Source: an uncultured Chlamydiae bacterium
GTDB lineage: Bacteria > Chlamydiota > Chlamydiia > Chlamydiales > SM23-39
Direction of reading: 5' to 3'
DNA: 64,000 bases
Assembly: GCA_963828125.1 (NCBI GenBank)
Contig: CAWHDP010000002.1
Location: 512,001-576,000 of the forward strand
Every line of letters begins with the position of its first letter. Position 1 is the stretch's first letter. Below, piece after piece: positions 7,101-14,541 of this stretch. The notes under the pieces are model-generated. The model worked only from the letters and a program-made list of their open reading frames with translations. It searched no databases and was not told where the DNA came from. Both the position numbers and the translations under genes were made by a program.

Positions 7101-9555
7101 CCTCCCCCCCTACGCCCGCGCGCAAGTCAAACAACTCCCCAAACCCAAAGCGGAGAGGATCGAGGGGCTCTCTCCATCCATCGCGCTCGAACAAAAGACA
7201 GGCGGACTCAACCCGCGCAGCACCGTTGGAACCATCACCGAGGTTTATGATTTGTTCCGCGTTTTATACGCTCATTTGGGGATTCCGCATGATCCCGAGA
7301 CTGGAAAAGCGATCCAGAACATCAGCAAAGAGAGTATCGTCGAGGCGATTTTTAAGCTCCCTGAAGGGGAAAAAATCCAGATTTTAACGCCAGTGGTCTT
7401 TGAGAAGAAAGAGAGCTTTGAAACGCTCATCGAACGGCTTAACCGCGAAGGGTATCTCCGGATCCGACTCAATGGGAAGATTTATCCGCTAGATGAGCCG
7501 ATTCCCTATGAGAAATTCAGAAAAAACGAACTATTTTTAGTGATCGACCGGTTGGTTGTCGAACGAAAATCTGAAAAAAGACTCTATGAGGCGATCAGCA
7601 AAGCGGAAGGGGTAGTGATTGTAGGAAGAGAGGGGGAAGATTTGCCCTTTTCTTTCTCGGGAAGCGGACGGATTACCCCGCAGAGCTTCTCGTTCAACCA
7701 CGACGCAGGAATGTGCCAAGAGTGCTTGGGTTTAGGGATCACCTACGGCGCCCACCTCGAAGACGATAGGAAATTCCAAAAGAGCTCCATCTACGATATA
7801 GCCGACCGTTTGTTCAAAGAAAAAGGGACGAGCGGCGCTTACAAAGTCTTAGAACGGTATTTTAAAGAGGCGGGCGAAAGTAGAGAGGTGGTTTTGAACG
7901 GCGGGCCCGAAGTGCGGATGAAAGGGGGGCTCACCCTCCGGTGGCGCGGACTGCATCCAGTACTCGCCGGCGCCGCGCGAATGGCTGTAGGTTCTATCCG
8001 CGAGTCGCTCCTCCCCATGATGAGCGCCACCACCTGCTCCGCCTGCAAAGGGATGAGACTGAACCCCATCGCCCGCAATGTCCGGATCAAAGGGCTCTCG
8101 ATTGGAGATTTATGCCATTTAAGCATTGAAAAAGCCTACGATTTTCTCCAAGAACTCGAGGTTCCCCCCTATCTGAAAGAGACCCACGCCCAATCGTTGA
8201 AATTCCTCGAGTTTTTACTCGCCATCGGCCTCCGCTACCTTTCGCTAGATCGCTCTGCGCCGACATTGAGCGGCGGAGAACTACAAAGGATCCGGCTCGC
8301 ACGGCAACTCGGCTCTGGACTCACATCGTGCCTTTACATCCTCGACGAGCCGACGATCGGACTCCACCCTTATAACAATGAACTCTTGACCCGGGCATTG
8401 AAAGACCTTCGCGATCTTGGCAATACATTGATCCTCGTCGAGCACGATCCAATGACGATCCGCGCCTCCGATTATCTATTCGATTTTGGCCCGAAAGCAG
8501 GACGCGAAGGGGGCTATATCACAGCCCACGGAACCATTGCCGAAATTGAAAAAAATCCCGATTCGCTCACCGGCGCCTATTTAAGCGGCCGGAAACAAAT
8601 CCCCATTCCGAAAAAAAGGAGACCCTTCACACCAGGTATCCGGATTGAAAACGCTACGCTACATAATCTTAAAAATATCACCGTCGAAATCCCCAAATCG
8701 GCCATCACGTGTCTAACGGGCGTCTCTGGATCGGGCAAATCGACCTTAATGAGCTATCTGCTGAAAAATCGGGAATTCGAGCGGGTCATCATCGTCGATC
8801 AAAGCCCCATTGGACAAACCTCGCGCGCAGACGTCAGCACCTACTCTGACATCCAGCCTCTCATCCGCGCCCTCTACGCCTCGCTCCCCCTCGCAATGAC
8901 CAAAGGACTCCAGCCCCGCCACTTCAGCCCCAATCACCTCCGCGGCATGTGCCGCACCTGCTGGGGACTTGGCTACAAGACCGTCGATCTCCAATTTCTC
9001 CCTGCCGTCCGCATCATCTGCGACAGCTGCCGCGGCTGCCGTCTCAACCCCATTTCTCTAGAGGTGAAATATAAAGGCAAACACCTCGGCGAAGTGCTCC
9101 AAATGACCGTCAGCGAAGCCCTTGAATGGTTTTCAGCCATCCCCAAAATCGTCAAACGGCTCGAGACCCTCATCTCCGTCGGCCTCCCCTATCTGCAGCT
9201 CGGCCAGGAACTCCCCTCCCTCTCCGGCGGCGAGGCCCAGCGGCTCCGCCTCTCCCGCGAGCTTGCCAAACGGGAGAGCGGCAACACGCTCTACCTCATC
9301 GACGAACCCACCGTCGGCCTCCACCCCGAAGACATCCTCAAACTCCTCAAAATTTTCCACCACCTCGCCGATAAAAAAAACACCCTCGTCATCATCGAAC
9401 ACAATATAGACGTCATTGTCAACGCCGACCACCTCATCGATCTCGGCCCCGACGCCGGCGACGACGGAGGGGAAGTCATGGCGTCCGGCACCCCCGAACA
9501 GGTAGCCCGCTCCCAAACATCTCGGACAGCGAAATATATCAGGGAAATGCTATAG
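4171..9555 (+). CDS. uvrA: Excinuclease ABC subunit A, tandem-fused double-length chlamydial type
   Basis: Four Walker A motifs (TGxSGSGKS) and four LSGGE signatures plus zinc fingers, i.e. two UvrA units in one ORF; start placed at ATG 4171. Confidence 0.96.
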   Translation: MMILKKVRVHNLKGVDLELEPGQLVVFTGVSGSGKSSLAFDTIYVEGQRRYIESLSHQARRFLGDLPKPDAESISGLSPTIAIEQKTAGRTPRSTVGTMTGIYDFLRVLYARLATPHCPVSGEPVAAQSREKIIAEVQSLKPGSKIVILAPFARNKKGEFKEEFAELLSKGFLRLKIDGAWVDLSEEVILDPKVGHDVDIVVDRLVVNGENRSRIAESVSAALELGKGVFSVDDTVYSQFAHSVQSGLSYGPLEPHDFSFNHPAGMCPSCHGLGVTAEFDLEKVIDPEKSIREDCCLVASSYNTVRYGNIYNNLAKRFKFSVDTPWKDLSKRAKEVFLYGVEQKWTRMDFVHPVKKTSWFEYVCWKGVLSEARERLVAAKSDLYRKKMGELMSEGVCSSCKGERIKPYPAAARMGGKRIGELTAMPLEELLVFFEEIRWSPLELKIGEELRKEIQEQLSFLIHVGLSYLSLDRTSPSLSGGESQRVRLASQIGAGLVGAIYVLDEPSIGLHPIDHHKLIDTLKALRDQGNTVLVVEHDLDTILAADRVVDVGPGAGVHGGEILELTDPRSITGGYVSGRLKIEPPKKRRKKEGELILTGACRHNLKNVTVSIPLGVFICVTGVSGSGKSSLISDTLYPALMSRSPSLKGLDLIDKVIGVDQSPIGRTPRSNAATYIKLFDEIRDLFTELPESKIRGFGAGHFSFNVKEGSCSYCGGLGQVKIDMDFMEDAWIQCPQCKGKRFEPEILAVKFKGKSIHDVLEMDVEHALELFAAFPPIRKKLEVLSLVGLDYLSLGQPSTTLSGGEAQRIKLAKELVRPATGKTMFILDEPTTGLHFHDVKKLIGILQHLVDRGNTVLVIEHNMDLVKCADWVIDLGPGAGAKGGEIVGTGTPDQIAKLKTATGIALRGVQAGGKSEKKLAVMKEIVVEGACQNNLKGVSLKVQRGKITVFTGPSGSGKSSLAFETLYAEGQRRYTETLPPYARAQVKQLPKPKAERIEGLSPSIALEQKTGGLNPRSTVGTITEVYDLFRVLYAHLGIPHDPETGKAIQNISKESIVEAIFKLPEGEKIQILTPVVFEKKESFETLIERLNREGYLRIRLNGKIYPLDEPIPYEKFRKNELFLVIDRLVVERKSEKRLYEAISKAEGVVIVGREGEDLPFSFSGSGRITPQSFSFNHDAGMCQECLGLGITYGAHLEDDRKFQKSSIYDIADRLFKEKGTSGAYKVLERYFKEAGESREVVLNGGPEVRMKGGLTLRWRGLHPVLAGAARMAVGSIRESLLPMMSATTCSACKGMRLNPIARNVRIKGLSIGDLCHLSIEKAYDFLQELEVPPYLKETHAQSLKFLEFLLAIGLRYLSLDRSAPTLSGGELQRIRLARQLGSGLTSCLYILDEPTIGLHPYNNELLTRALKDLRDLGNTLILVEHDPMTIRASDYLFDFGPKAGREGGYITAHGTIAEIEKNPDSLTGAYLSGRKQIPIPKKRRPFTPGIRIENATLHNLKNITVEIPKSAITCLTGVSGSGKSTLMSYLLKNREFERVIIVDQSPIGQTSRADVSTYSDIQPLIRALYASLPLAMTKGLQPRHFSPNHLRGMCRTCWGLGYKTVDLQFLPAVRIICDSCRGCRLNPISLEVKYKGKHLGEVLQMTVSEALEWFSAIPKIVKRLETLISVGLPYLQLGQELPSLSGGEAQRLRLSRELAKRESGNTLYLIDEPTVGLHPEDILKLLKIFHHLADKKNTLVIIEHNIDVIVNADHLIDLGPDAGDDGGEVMASGTPEQVARSQTSRTAKYIREML

Positions 9556-9577
9556 TCCGGAAAAAGGAGTTTTCGTT

Positions 9578-9949
9578 ATGTCCGGTCTACATCCCGTTAC
9601 ATCGAGAAAAAAGGCCCAGGCCCTCTCGACCGCTCTGTTTTTAATCGGATTGGCCACCCTGATTTTCACCGACGCCTGGTGGCCCGGCGTCATGCTCATT
9701 ATCGGATTGCCGCTCGCCCTGCGGCAATACTTGCTCGGCAGAACCTATGATATGATGATGACCCTCCTCGTCTTTATCGGCACCTTCGTCACCGTCCAAT
9801 TCGATATCTCCTGGCGCATCTTCCTCCCCATCCTCTTTACCCTAGGAGCTCTCTATATCCTCTTCCGCGAATTCCTAGGACCCGATGAAACCACCGAAGA
9901 GGAGAAAGAGGAAGAACTCAACCGCGAAATTGAAGAGAACAAGAAATAG
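9578..9949 (+). CDS. Small multi-pass membrane protein of unknown function
   Basis: AGGAG ribosome-binding site; about four hydrophobic segments; acidic C-terminal tail. Confidence 0.85.
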   Translation: MSGLHPVTSRKKAQALSTALFLIGLATLIFTDAWWPGVMLIIGLPLALRQYLLGRTYDMMMTLLVFIGTFVTVQFDISWRIFLPILFTLGALYILFREFLGPDETTEEEKEEELNREIEENKK

Positions 9950-10215
9950 GTGAGTTTAAGCAAGAAGCTGACTGTTAGTGGATTATGTTTTTTTACAATT
10001 ATTTATTCTATTTAATACTAGCTTCGTGCTATAATTATTTTCATGAAAAAGAACAGTGACCACAAATCTTCTCTTCTCGTTGCGCCTGCAATGCAGATTA
10101 CAATTCATTGTATTCGGGTCTGACCCGAATCATCCTTGTTTTCCATCACATTTTTTAAGTTAAATAAAAAAAATAAAACAGATTAAAAATAACAATAAAA
10201 AAAAGGAATATTATT

Positions 10216-10554
10216 ATGCCATTAGGATATGTACCAACAGGAAATTATAGACAAGGTCCCGCACCCACGCAACCCGCTCAAGCTGCACAACAACCTGCAC
10301 CCCCAGCCCCGTCGCCCGCAGATGATGCCGCTGTATTGGCGCAATTTCAGGGCATGCAGATGAATGCTGACCCAAAACAAGATAACTGTGCGGTGTGCCG
10401 AAACCCTCTTTCTCAAGAGAGAGTTGTACAATTCCCTTGTTCGCATCAACTGCATGTAAAGTGTGCAGCGGAGTGGGCTAGAGTTCATAGACCGGCCTCT
10501 TGCCCTATATGCCGCGCACCTTTTGTTCTTGTTCAAAATTGCGTCATCCTTTGA
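10216..10554 (+). CDS. Eukaryotic-like RING-H2 finger protein with C-terminal CaaX motif (CVIL); putative E3 ligase effector
   Basis: C-x2-C-x13-C-x-H-x2-H-x2-C-x12-C-x2-C with conserved Trp and CPICR; P/Q/A-rich N-terminus; AAGGA upstream; terminator-like hairpin downstream. Confidence 0.88.
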   Translation: MPLGYVPTGNYRQGPAPTQPAQAAQQPAPPAPSPADDAAVLAQFQGMQMNADPKQDNCAVCRNPLSQERVVQFPCSHQLHVKCAAEWARVHRPASCPICRAPFVLVQNCVIL

Positions 10555-10590
10555 CATATAAAAAATGATCTCTTAATTTTTTTCGTTCGG

Positions 10591-10618
10591 CCCCCTTGAT
10601 TCTAAGGGGGTTTTGTTT
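10591..10618 (+). terminator. Probable intrinsic terminator after the RING gene
   Basis: CCCCCTT-GATTCT-AAGGGGG hairpin followed by TTTTGTTT. Confidence 0.6.
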
Positions 10619-10639
10619 GATAATGAATGATCGTCTGAT

Positions 10640-10761
10640 GGTTCGTGGGAGATGTCCTTGACGCCGGGTCGAAGGGCCAAGAGAAACTCTTTGACTGGAA
10701 GACATGGGATCCCCTCAATGCGCCACCTCTTTTCCCCAAGATAGAGAAAAAGCGGGGTCGC
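10640..10761 (-). pseudogene. Possible remnant of the C-terminus of an AAA_14/DUF4143-type ATPase gene
   Basis: Minus strand reads ATPLFLYLGER, then after a frameshift WRIEGIPCLPVKEFLLALRPG; resemblance recalled from memory only; GC-richer patch in an AT-rich spacer. Confidence 0.35.
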
Positions 10762-10793
10762 TAATGTACAATCTTTAAAAAAAAGACTAATTT

Positions 10794-13382
10794 ATGATTA
10801 ATGTACAATCTTGCTATACCAGATTCACGGCTGCCCATCCCAGTAATAAGACCCCAGAGCCGTCATGGACAGCTGCATCCAATGTTGCGGGAGCCGTTGC
10901 TTATGCCACCATCTCCCCGTTAGGCGCCCTTTTCGCCGCATTAAAAGCGGGAGTCGACATCCTATCGGAAATCCATACCAATCTCATTAACCAGTGCCCA
11001 TCAAACCCGCAAGAAGCTCTGCAATACATTCAAAAGCATCGCATTACAAACGAAAAGGATCGGATTCAGATTCTCGAATCCTGCTTAAGCTTAAATCAGA
11101 GTGCCGCGATAACTTTAGACCATCTCAAACAATTCCAGATCACGGATCAAAATGTATTAATAGAGATCGCCATACGTTATGCGAAGCAACCTGCATGTAG
11201 AACTTTGGAATATATCGCCAACTTCAACATCCAAAATGAAGAAAGTCTTTTTGAAATCGCTAAAATTTGCGCGACTACGAGTTCATATACTCCGAAATAC
11301 ATTAAAAATTTTAGCATAAAGAACGAAACAAAACTCTTTGAAATTGCTAAGCTATGCGCAAATAAGAATGGTGGAACAACTGCGGAACAGATCCAAAATT
11401 TTGGCATTACAGATCCAAGCAAACTTTTTGAAATCGCCATGCTCTGCGCTAAACAGAATTGCCGTACCACGGCTCAATGCATCAAAAAGTTTGGGATCGA
11501 AGACCAAAGTGATCTTTATCAGATCGCAAAGTGGATGGCGCGCTACCAAGCGTGCCACTTCATACGAAACTTTAAGAAATTTGACATTAAGGACGAAAAC
11601 AAACGGATTGAGCTGGCTATGATGTGCGCATCGAAAGATGGCGAGACAACTGCAGCAAATATCGGCATATTTGACATTACAAATGAGATCAAACTTTGCG
11701 AGATCTTCGTGCTCTGCGCAAAAAATCACCCAGCAAAGATAGCAGAATTGCTCACATGGTTTCCGCTTTCATCAACCACCCTCCTCGAAACAACGGTCTG
11801 GCCATTATGCCTTCTCCAATCCCCCGAGGTTCTTAAAGAAATAACAGGGAATTTAAAACCAAAATATGGCCTTCTGGGAGATCTTGCATCCAGGCTCGAA
11901 GAGGATCCAAGTCAATGGGAGTCGGTCATGAACAATTCACAGCTATCTGAGTGGATAAAACAGTCGGGGCTAGATTCTCCCCATTTTTCATCTATTTCTT
12001 CCTGCCTTGCGAAAATGCAACCTCACCACATACGGCAGTCATTGACCTGTTTCTTTCTAGCCGCATTGTCTGCTCTCCATCTGGGATTAGGGCCTGAGGG
12101 ATTGCAGAAAATCTGGAAAAAAGATCTTTTCCTGAAGATCTTACAAATACATGCCCCTCATTTAGCCCCTCGCCTTACAGAAACCCTCCTTCGCCTTGCG
12201 AAAGACGGCTGTGCATTGGACATATATTCCAATGGCACTCAACTAAACTTGGAACAGAAGTATCCATATATGACTTTACTGCGGATGGAGTTCGCATTAC
12301 TTCAAAGCCAAGGAGTGAATATGAATCGTTTCGTTAACATGCTAGATAACACACTCCGCAAAACTTTTAAAGACGCCAAAAAATTCAAATTGTTGCTCGT
12401 AGTTTTAGACAGTCTTGTCAAAGCTGAGTTGGGAATAAAACAAAAACAGGCAGTTTTAGATTGTTTAGTAGATCAATCAGATTTTATAATCAAAAATTTG
12501 GGCAACATATCGATTCTTTTCGATCTGAATGAAGAATCCCTTTTGGAGAACAGTTCAGAAGGATACGAGGCATTGGCGATGCGAGCCATGCAAAAAATTC
12601 TTCCCGTAGGAGATTTGGCTCATGGATTCGACTCATTGATACAAACGTTCGGATCTAGCCGCAATCCCCAAGCCATTTTCCGTTATGCCGCTGGACTCAG
12701 CACTCTGAATCACCCAGAGGTGGATCGATCATTCAAACAATTTTTTCTATCCGTATGCGATGGGACATTTCAGAACGTCCGGTATAATCCCGACATCAAT
12801 CCGCAAATGCAAAAAATTCAAAATTACTCTGCTGATCTAATCCATCTTTGGAAGCAAGGAAAAACGTGCGACCTCAATGATCAGCTCGGGGCTCAAATAC
12901 CTCATTTAAATCATAAAAAATTGAAAATCATTGATACGGACAATCCATACGATCTGCTCCTTTCCGGAACCGAGGTGCAAGGGAGTTGTCAAAGAATCGA
13001 TGCAAATATCGAATATAACAAGGGACTATTAGGTCTATTGATGAACGGAGCTAGACTTTTGGCTGTTGTAGATCCAAATGGAGTCATCCAGACCAAAGCT
13101 GTCATTCGCATTTTGTTCAATCAACAGGAGAAACCAGTTTTGTTTATCGAAAGACTCTATGGAAATGCTCGGTACGGCGATCCACTGCTCTCTTTCGCAA
13201 AAGAACGGGCCAGAGAGTTCGAGTTGCCGCTGGCTGCCACAGAAGTGGGCGAAGGGCCTTTGATTCAAGCCTCCTTAACCTCATTAGGAGGTCCAGCGCC
13301 ATATGAATATAGCGATGCAGGCGGAGAAATCTGCCCACAAGGGATCATCTGTGTATCGAGATACTGCATTCTACAAGAATGA
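10794..13382 (+). CDS. 862-aa protein with eight ~30-aa helical repeats and a C-terminal GSCQ-motif domain; putative effector
   Basis: Long ORF, AT-richer than flanks; repeat consensus approx. I-x-x-F-x-I-x-[DN]-x3-L-x-E-I-A-x2-C-A. Confidence 0.85.
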   Translation: MINVQSCYTRFTAAHPSNKTPEPSWTAASNVAGAVAYATISPLGALFAALKAGVDILSEIHTNLINQCPSNPQEALQYIQKHRITNEKDRIQILESCLSLNQSAAITLDHLKQFQITDQNVLIEIAIRYAKQPACRTLEYIANFNIQNEESLFEIAKICATTSSYTPKYIKNFSIKNETKLFEIAKLCANKNGGTTAEQIQNFGITDPSKLFEIAMLCAKQNCRTTAQCIKKFGIEDQSDLYQIAKWMARYQACHFIRNFKKFDIKDENKRIELAMMCASKDGETTAANIGIFDITNEIKLCEIFVLCAKNHPAKIAELLTWFPLSSTTLLETTVWPLCLLQSPEVLKEITGNLKPKYGLLGDLASRLEEDPSQWESVMNNSQLSEWIKQSGLDSPHFSSISSCLAKMQPHHIRQSLTCFFLAALSALHLGLGPEGLQKIWKKDLFLKILQIHAPHLAPRLTETLLRLAKDGCALDIYSNGTQLNLEQKYPYMTLLRMEFALLQSQGVNMNRFVNMLDNTLRKTFKDAKKFKLLLVVLDSLVKAELGIKQKQAVLDCLVDQSDFIIKNLGNISILFDLNEESLLENSSEGYEALAMRAMQKILPVGDLAHGFDSLIQTFGSSRNPQAIFRYAAGLSTLNHPEVDRSFKQFFLSVCDGTFQNVRYNPDINPQMQKIQNYSADLIHLWKQGKTCDLNDQLGAQIPHLNHKKLKIIDTDNPYDLLLSGTEVQGSCQRIDANIEYNKGLLGLLMNGARLLAVVDPNGVIQTKAVIRILFNQQEKPVLFIERLYGNARYGDPLLSFAKERAREFELPLAATEVGEGPLIQASLTSLGGPAPYEYSDAGGEICPQGIICVSRYCILQE

Positions 13383-13392
13383 CTGTAAAAGT

Positions 13393-14541
<1,149 letters not shown>

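Follow-up and report, generated by a model that had tools for sequence, protein, structure and literature searches.

What does a 112-residue protein with a eukaryote-type RING-H2 finger and a terminal CVIL do in the genome of an uncultured soil chlamydia, and is that ending a lipidation signal or a product of chance? The question is raised by P0001, an open reading frame in a window of 64,000 nucleotides (the whole stretch of DNA that was analysed), which lies within a 1.92-Mb contig of a 2.37-Mb, 95% complete genome. The features of the locus, in window coordinates and with the basis of each in brackets, are as follows.

10216..10554, + strand: P0001, the 112-aa ORF with RING-H2 and CaaX (ATG to TGA, ending CVIL-TGA).
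10216..10380, + strand: low-complexity N-terminus rich in P/Q/A/T, residues 1-55 (composition; low pLDDT).
10321..10350, + strand: predicted helix, residues 36-45 (structure model).
10387..10515, + strand: C3H2C3 RING-H2 finger, C58-C99, with W87, P97, I98 and linchpin R100 (Pfam, alignment, model).
10540..10554, + strand: CaaX box C109-V-I-L plus TGA stop (ORF translation; contigs of three runs, no differences).
10203..10207, + strand: Shine-Dalgarno-like AAGGA, with the ATG 8 nt downstream (sequence).
10589..10612, + strand: intrinsic-terminator-like hairpin followed by a T run (folding, shuffles).
10027..10035, + strand: candidate promoter, an extended -10-like TGcTATAAT in the AT-rich spacer (by eye).
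9950..13392, no strand assigned: lineage-specific insert with the RING gene and an 862-aa ORF (comparison with relatives).

The first-pass annotation had credited P0001 with its own ribosome-binding site and terminator, and both were found again: AAGGA stands 8 nt upstream of the ATG, and the terminator-like hairpin at 10589-10612 had a z of -2.35, with 3 of 200 shuffles folding equally well, such sites overall being in modest excess over chance (3 found against 1.4 expected). Its description of the locus as an AT-rich insertion held for the upstream spacer (28.6% GC) and not for the gene itself (51% GC). The GC3 of P0001 was 35%, at the 7th percentile of the genome. A perfect 8-bp hairpin was also seen at 10112-10130, 5' of the RING gene, and a 14-nt exact direct repeat at 10762-10812, 5' of the 862-aa ORF.

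The zinc ligands of P0001 are C58, C61, C75, H77, H80, C83, C96 and C99, a canonical C3H2C3 set, and V60, W87, P97, I98, R100 and C109 are also present. The profile PF13639 (RING_2) scored 38.4 bits against a cut-off of 27.3, which, with W87 and R100 in place, bears out the complete C3H2C3 RING with Trp and post-Cys Arg that had first been read from the letters. An RBX1 or APC11 identity was rejected on scores of 24.3 against a cut-off of 31 for zf-rbx1 and 23.6 against 25 for zf-ANAPC11; the RBX1-like reading had been suggested by the DNCAVCRN stretch. The closest solved sequences to the RING were those of RNF38, RLIM, RNF126, RNF13 and Arkadia, with 27 sequences at E ≤0.001. A RING finger and an E2 are a textbook pair, and V60, W87, P97 and I98 are the residues that we take to make the E2 contact. 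With these and the linchpin arginine kept, the E3-type surface predicted for the RING is intact; R62 and A88 occupy positions that are hydrophobic in many RINGs. R100 aligned with the Y position in chain 9q8y of RNF38 R454Y, which is described as a linchpin mutant, the linchpin arginine favouring transfer over mere E2 binding (PMC12326332).

Folding of P0001 without an alignment gave a pLDDT of 49, and a 46-row alignment was used instead. In the AlphaFold2 model obtained with it, pLDDT reached 93-96 across the block of residues 61-100, and residues 1-55 were of low confidence except for helix 36-45, in keeping with the disordered P/Q/A-rich N-terminus proposed earlier. All the PDB rows listed by Foldseek for the model were E3-ligase entries with a probability of 1.00, the best E being 3.4e-3 and none ≤1e-3. 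By its eight ligands, its profile score and its predicted fold, P0001 is a member of the RING-H2 family. Helix 36-45, the sole ordered element outside the RING, is suggested by the model as a candidate partner-binding motif. The helix has a D-x-x-hydrophobic spacing, which in our view resembles that of ubiquitin-binding MIU helices, but without their central Ala.

The genome that carries P0001 is, by its gene content, that of a chlamydial endosymbiont with type III secretion genes: SctV, SctN and SctJ, the three subunits searched, gave profile matches over cut-off, and four strong nucleotide-translocase matches and F-box-like genes were also found. Prenyltransferase (PF00432), E2 (PF00179) and ubiquitin (PF00240) profiles had no match in this 95% complete genome, the control of the E2 search being silent. 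As a rule of composition, type III signals lie in N-termini rich in S/T/P/N/Q. Residues 2-25 of P0001 consist to 50% of S/T/P/N/Q, at the 97th percentile of genome genes, and to 4% of D/E/K/L/F/I, within the lowest 0.2%; by composition only, residues 1-55 make a candidate type III secretion signal. P0001 DNA was found in four soil metagenome runs, all from one study, and, as a small share, in one marine run, with no RNA dataset among the runs found to contain it. A 158-aa cysteine-rich ORF is repeated without change at eight places on contigs C1 and C2 of this genome (G000) and probably belongs to a mobile element.

The genome has four RING genes, P0001 included. The other three, together with a fifth, degenerate RING-like ORF that has a hydrophobic tail (E 0.006 with a custom profile), are at C2:770083-770826 (+), C2:767882-768334, C2:1322957-1323241 and C2:208670-210373. 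At the same thresholds, RING genes were detected in 73 of the 103 genomes of the family and in 108 of 300 from the order, compared with 0 of 14 controls, and RING with CaaX recurred in five other sequence clusters; the first-pass view that the combination is unusual was not supported. Three RING matches had one internal TGA each (G233:C56, G187:C12; two in one small genome), which may mark broken genes or TGA read as Trp.

That P0001 ends in CVIL followed by TGA was confirmed. CVIL is described as a canonical geranylgeranylation motif: yeast Rho5 ends in it, and a reporter that carries it is shifted in yeast lacking FTase (PMC11304957). It is also given as the end of FBXL2 (PMC9141697). The earlier reading had taken a Leu-ending CaaX as a GGTase-I signal. 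In the genome itself, Cys stood at position -4 in 39 of 2187 called ORFs, and a strict CaaX was found only on P0001. With a chance of 0.00074 per gene, 1.6 strict boxes were expected among the 2187 genes and 1 was seen; therefore, a CaaX somewhere in the genome is unremarkable, and CVIL alone is within chance. The chance that the box of this genome should land on one of its four RING genes was about 0.003 (4 x 0.00074).

The frequency of the box on RING proteins at large was counted in two sets drawn from among the matches listed; there were 80 family and 74 order matches further, and about the last 30 family rows and three order matches with internal stops were left out. Set 1 covered 121 loci, almost all from the family of this genome, with 130 RING ORFs, from which 10 that were open at the 3' end were removed. 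Among these listed matches, 5 of 120 RING ORFs ended in a strict CaaX, P0001 included; the strict motif was fixed after this set had been examined. Set 2, which was independent, covered 106 loci of other families with 120 RING ORFs, 1 of which was removed; here, again among the matches listed, the box was carried by 2/119 RING and 0/216 flanking ORFs, which is not significant (p=0.13), and only with the genome's own genes added to the controls did p reach 0.002. The two sets and the genome's own 567-aa RING protein were pooled to 240 RING ORFs. Without P0001, the pooled set had the box on 6/239 RING ORFs, where 0.2-0.3 were expected, compared with 1/469 flanking ORFs (p=0.007) and 0/2186 of the genome's other genes; after homologues had been collapsed, it was present in 5 of 175 clusters (p=0.007), and all these p-values overstate significance because related genomes are not independent. 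When the motif was shifted inward by 1-10 residues, 0 or 1 match was obtained per offset. The sole match among the flanking controls was CMVF, and hydrophobic ends can mimic the motif. The 567-aa protein ends in CLKA, which fails the motif, and was left uncounted as a CaaX case; a frame-blind DNA pattern for CaaX plus stop, run on 15 genomes, was uninformative.

Among the CaaX cases, RING was joined to TPR-like repeats in L327:3560-4681 (G055), L329:1271-2593 (G056), L087 (G003) and L328:3580-4737 (G023), with the ends CSVQ, CSIQ, CQIL and CSLL. Two syntenic orthologues of this type, at 43% identity, have both retained the box (CSVQ, CSIQ). Such RING-TPR-CaaX proteins are likely to be a fuller kind of ligase, with a putative substrate-binding region. 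The case L177, cut at its 5' end, has a hydrophobic segment as well. L151, a 100-aa RING protein of another family that ends in KKKCTLF, resembles P0001 in the RING only (30%). A hydrophobic segment within the last 40 residues was found in 76/240 RING ORFs, compared with 41/469 flanking ORFs and 161/2187 of the genome's own ORFs, which makes membrane anchoring, as predicted from these tails, a theme of the chlamydial RING group.

The reading that we favour, with a probability of roughly 60%, is that P0001 is a secreted RING E3 geranylgeranylated by the host and that it would work, as a single-chain ligase, at a membrane facing the host. Its S/T/P/Q-rich N-terminus would route it through the type III injectisome, and host GGTase-I, together with Rce1 and ICMT, would lipidate the tail at Cys109. 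The linker between the last zinc ligand and C109 is only nine residues long, and the prenylated cysteine would hold the RING near the bilayer. There, V60, W87, P97 and I98 would bind a host E2 of the UBE2D type, with R100 closing the E2-ubiquitin conjugate, and ubiquitin would be transferred to proteins on that membrane. As no folded substrate-binding domain was present in the predicted model, targets would be chosen mainly by the shared membrane, perhaps with help from helix 36-45. The sequence of P0001 contains no polybasic stretch and no second free cysteine. Without a polybasic stretch to select the plasma membrane, the sequence allows the inclusion, the plasma membrane or endomembranes, and the inclusion is therefore possible as the target but not indicated.

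The first point at which this scheme could fail is its tail. P0001 might be a secreted, active RING ligase that works in the host cytosol, its CVIL being a hydrophobic end that arose by chance and is either unlipidated or irrelevant. The count of 1 strict box against 1.6 expected fits such a protein, as do the short linker behind the RING, the lack of a CaaX on 233 of 240 chlamydial RING ORFs and the end SCSKKK on a paralogue of one CaaX case (L073). It is at odds, however, with the enrichment of CaaX on chlamydial RING proteins, with its retention in the diverged RING-TPR orthologues and with the perfect match of CVIL to the canonical GGTase-I motif, and we regard it as unlikely.

A prenylated P0001 might also serve as a decoy or chain seed, which would hold or discharge host E2-ubiquitin at the membrane and so blunt the ligases that would tag the vacuole. 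The absence of a folded substrate-binding domain from the model would suit this role, and so would the presence of only two lysines (K54 and K82, within the lowest 2.3% of genome genes), which would limit self-destruction. A low lysine content is equally compatible with an active ligase, however, and the linchpin arginine, which is kept, is described as favouring transfer over mere binding (PMC12326332); the decoy is thus given a small chance.

The surroundings of the gene bear on who its target might be. P0001 and the 862-aa ORF together take up the 3.4 kb that lie between trpS, which ends at 13393, and a conserved gene for a small membrane protein (9578-9949). When the same junction was compared in the regions of 20 relatives, it was empty or nearly so in 6, held unrelated genes in 11, and in 3 the two bordering genes did not lie together; no inserted ORF in these 20 regions matched P0001 or the 862-aa ORF at E <1e-4. 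The junction is a hot spot for insertions. In G006 it holds a RING-like ORF, which had no Pfam match and an E of 0.04 with a custom profile, and was not counted. The 862-aa ORF itself (10794-13382, + strand) is repeat-rich and has no Pfam match, and 12 of the 102 other genomes in the family contain a homologue; its best matches were titled mostly as Chlamydiae or Chlamydiota MAGs or as uncultured bacteria, with a few other labels. This family is effector-like and has no RING; its homologue in G105 (L319:3420-6389) carries a CaaX, CSIL, at the end.

This neighbour could itself be the substrate, P0001 being a meta-effector like Legionella LubX that tags another chlamydial effector, for example the 862-aa protein, for turnover. 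Both ORFs share one lineage-specific insert, there is the LubX-SidH precedent (PMC13720258), and the CSIL end of the homologue would fit. Against this, a RING gene stood beside 0 of the 12 homologues (loci of 6-9.5 kb each), by which a conserved pairing was rejected, and neither a RING pattern nor a CaaX ORF was seen in 31 loci around the 862-aa gene. A terminator-like hairpin separates the two ORFs, and 11 relatives have unrelated genes at the site. A role as meta-effector is improbable.

The origin of P0001 was sought by homology search and a RING tree. A search within the like-length class returned P0001 itself only (1 of 18 candidates), the other searches gave RING-only matches, and no orthologue was obtained in any of them. 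One library protein, P0016 (377 aa, on short ENA contigs), has several RING fingers and ends in CQIL. Among other chlamydial RING ORFs, 188 of 240 begin the RING within the first 35 residues, whereas that of P0001 is at the C-terminal end. In the tree (77 rows, 55 columns), CaaX needed 5 label changes, at least 4 of them forced by the starred branches; in an AU test, a single origin of the seven CaaX rows was not rejected (p=0.19). The tree does not show independent origins of the box, though the architectures, as predicted from sequence, differ. Search and tree named no donor for P0001, its tree neighbours being its own library hits and not chlamydial rows.

Could P0001 then be a recently acquired fragment of a eukaryotic or giant-virus gene, silent or not yet useful? 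It is a singleton in an insertion hot spot, its GC3 is at the 7th percentile, small RING proteins are common in giant viruses, and the library hits are its nearest neighbours in the tree. A silent fragment would hardly be expected, however, to keep all its ligands and presumed E2-contact residues together with a bacterial ribosome-binding site and terminator; the three other RING genes of the genome are likewise low in GC3 (26-46%), and RING genes are lineage-specific throughout the order. We give this possibility little credence.

A eukaryote-type domain with no bacterial orthologue might suggest host DNA mis-assembled into the contig, but this is largely refuted already. The contig in which P0001 is embedded is 1.92 Mb long. 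Run X1, possibly the source, has a 13.3-kb contig that extends from uvrA as far as the 862-aa gene and is without difference over 8500-13414; in X2, a contig links the start of P0001 to the end of the conserved gene upstream, and X2 and X3 contigs of the same study cover the CVIL stop. The first-pass annotation had proposed read mapping as the check on a chimera; the contigs mapped here make contamination unlikely. The X2 contigs had one difference, at 10273, at low depth. A palindromic, REP-like repeat of about 37-40 bp at about 13383-13422 overlaps the end of trpS; it occurs in 14 copies by pattern and at about 20 loci by BLAST, on both contigs of the genome, and breaks short-read contigs.

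Beyond the single gene, the host-geranylgeranylated ligase that we favour may belong to a wider pattern, which we put forward as tentative and rather doubtful. Environmental chlamydiae might have a large undescribed arsenal of small RING ligases, aimed mainly by an exchangeable membrane anchor that would be a hydrophobic tail in about one-third and a host-prenylated CaaX in a few. Pared down to secretion signal, RING and lipid tag, P0001 would be the minimal form, and may ride the route of host geranylgeranylated proteins to Rho/Rac-type GTPases. That hosts prenylate bacterial effectors is established for Legionella; in the literature searched, as far as its text was available, no report was found of a CaaX-bearing RING ligase in bacteria or of host prenylation in Chlamydiota. 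If the reading is right, P0001 would give the Chlamydiota their first example of exploited host prenylation and would be, within the literature searched, the first RING ligase of a single chain with a CaaX as its anchor. It would also be a small model, easy to test, of a ligase that is directed by a lipid instead of a binding domain. The RING genes in about one-third of order genomes would then be a class of membrane-anchored effectors that earlier surveys of few genomes had missed. A 2014 survey reported no chlamydial RING proteins outside NEX1b and has neither CaaX nor prenyl in its main text (PMC4209131), and in the available text of a 2026 review CaaX, prenyl and farnesyl are nowhere mentioned (PMC13720258).

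Several known systems share a part of what is predicted for P0001. The RINGs of RNF38, RLIM, RNF126 and Arkadia/ARK2C have the same ligand pattern, fold, Trp and linchpin Arg, and that of RNF38 is monomeric, but the similarity to eukaryotic RING-H2 ligases extends over about 50 residues only, and the solved matches are RING fragments. The only chlamydial RING ligase described as assayed so far is the Simkania negevensis protein SneRING (SNE_A12920), which was active as an E3 with UbcH5b and partly co-localised with ER and mitochondria (PMC12591485). Like P0001, it is a chlamydial RING protein. As described, its RING is N-terminal, with atypical ligands (His for Cys, NxxC), and its C-terminal domain is folded (PMC12591485); the RING of P0001 is C-terminal, with the canonical C3H2C3 set, and the protein has a CaaX box and no second domain. 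With canonical ligands and without the SneRING C-terminal domain, P0001 was not placed in that family. The RING/U-box-LRR genes of Neochlamydia, NEX1b, have been proposed as effectors of host ubiquitination and, unlike P0001, combine an N-terminal RING/U-box with LRRs (PMC4209131). Human FBXL2 is likewise a ubiquitin-ligase component that ends in CVIL and is geranylgeranylated for membrane targeting (PMC9141697, PMC9988375), but it is a eukaryotic F-box/LRR subunit, described as recognised by GGTase-III via an LRR domain that P0001 does not have, and it is not homologous to P0001. A parallel in arrangement comes from Legionella, where a host-prenylated CaaX is reported to anchor AnkB and Pel effectors at the vacuole and AnkB recruits ubiquitination there (PMC2916131, PMC13081727, PMC7542358). 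AnkB and P0001 are alike in joining ubiquitination to a host-prenylated tail, the prenylation of P0001 being predicted. AnkB is described as farnesylated (CVLC), exported by Dot/Icm and dependent, as an F-box adaptor, on the host SCF complex, whereas P0001, from a chlamydia predicted to secrete by type III, has a Leu-ending motif and carries the RING, with its predicted E2 binding, in itself.
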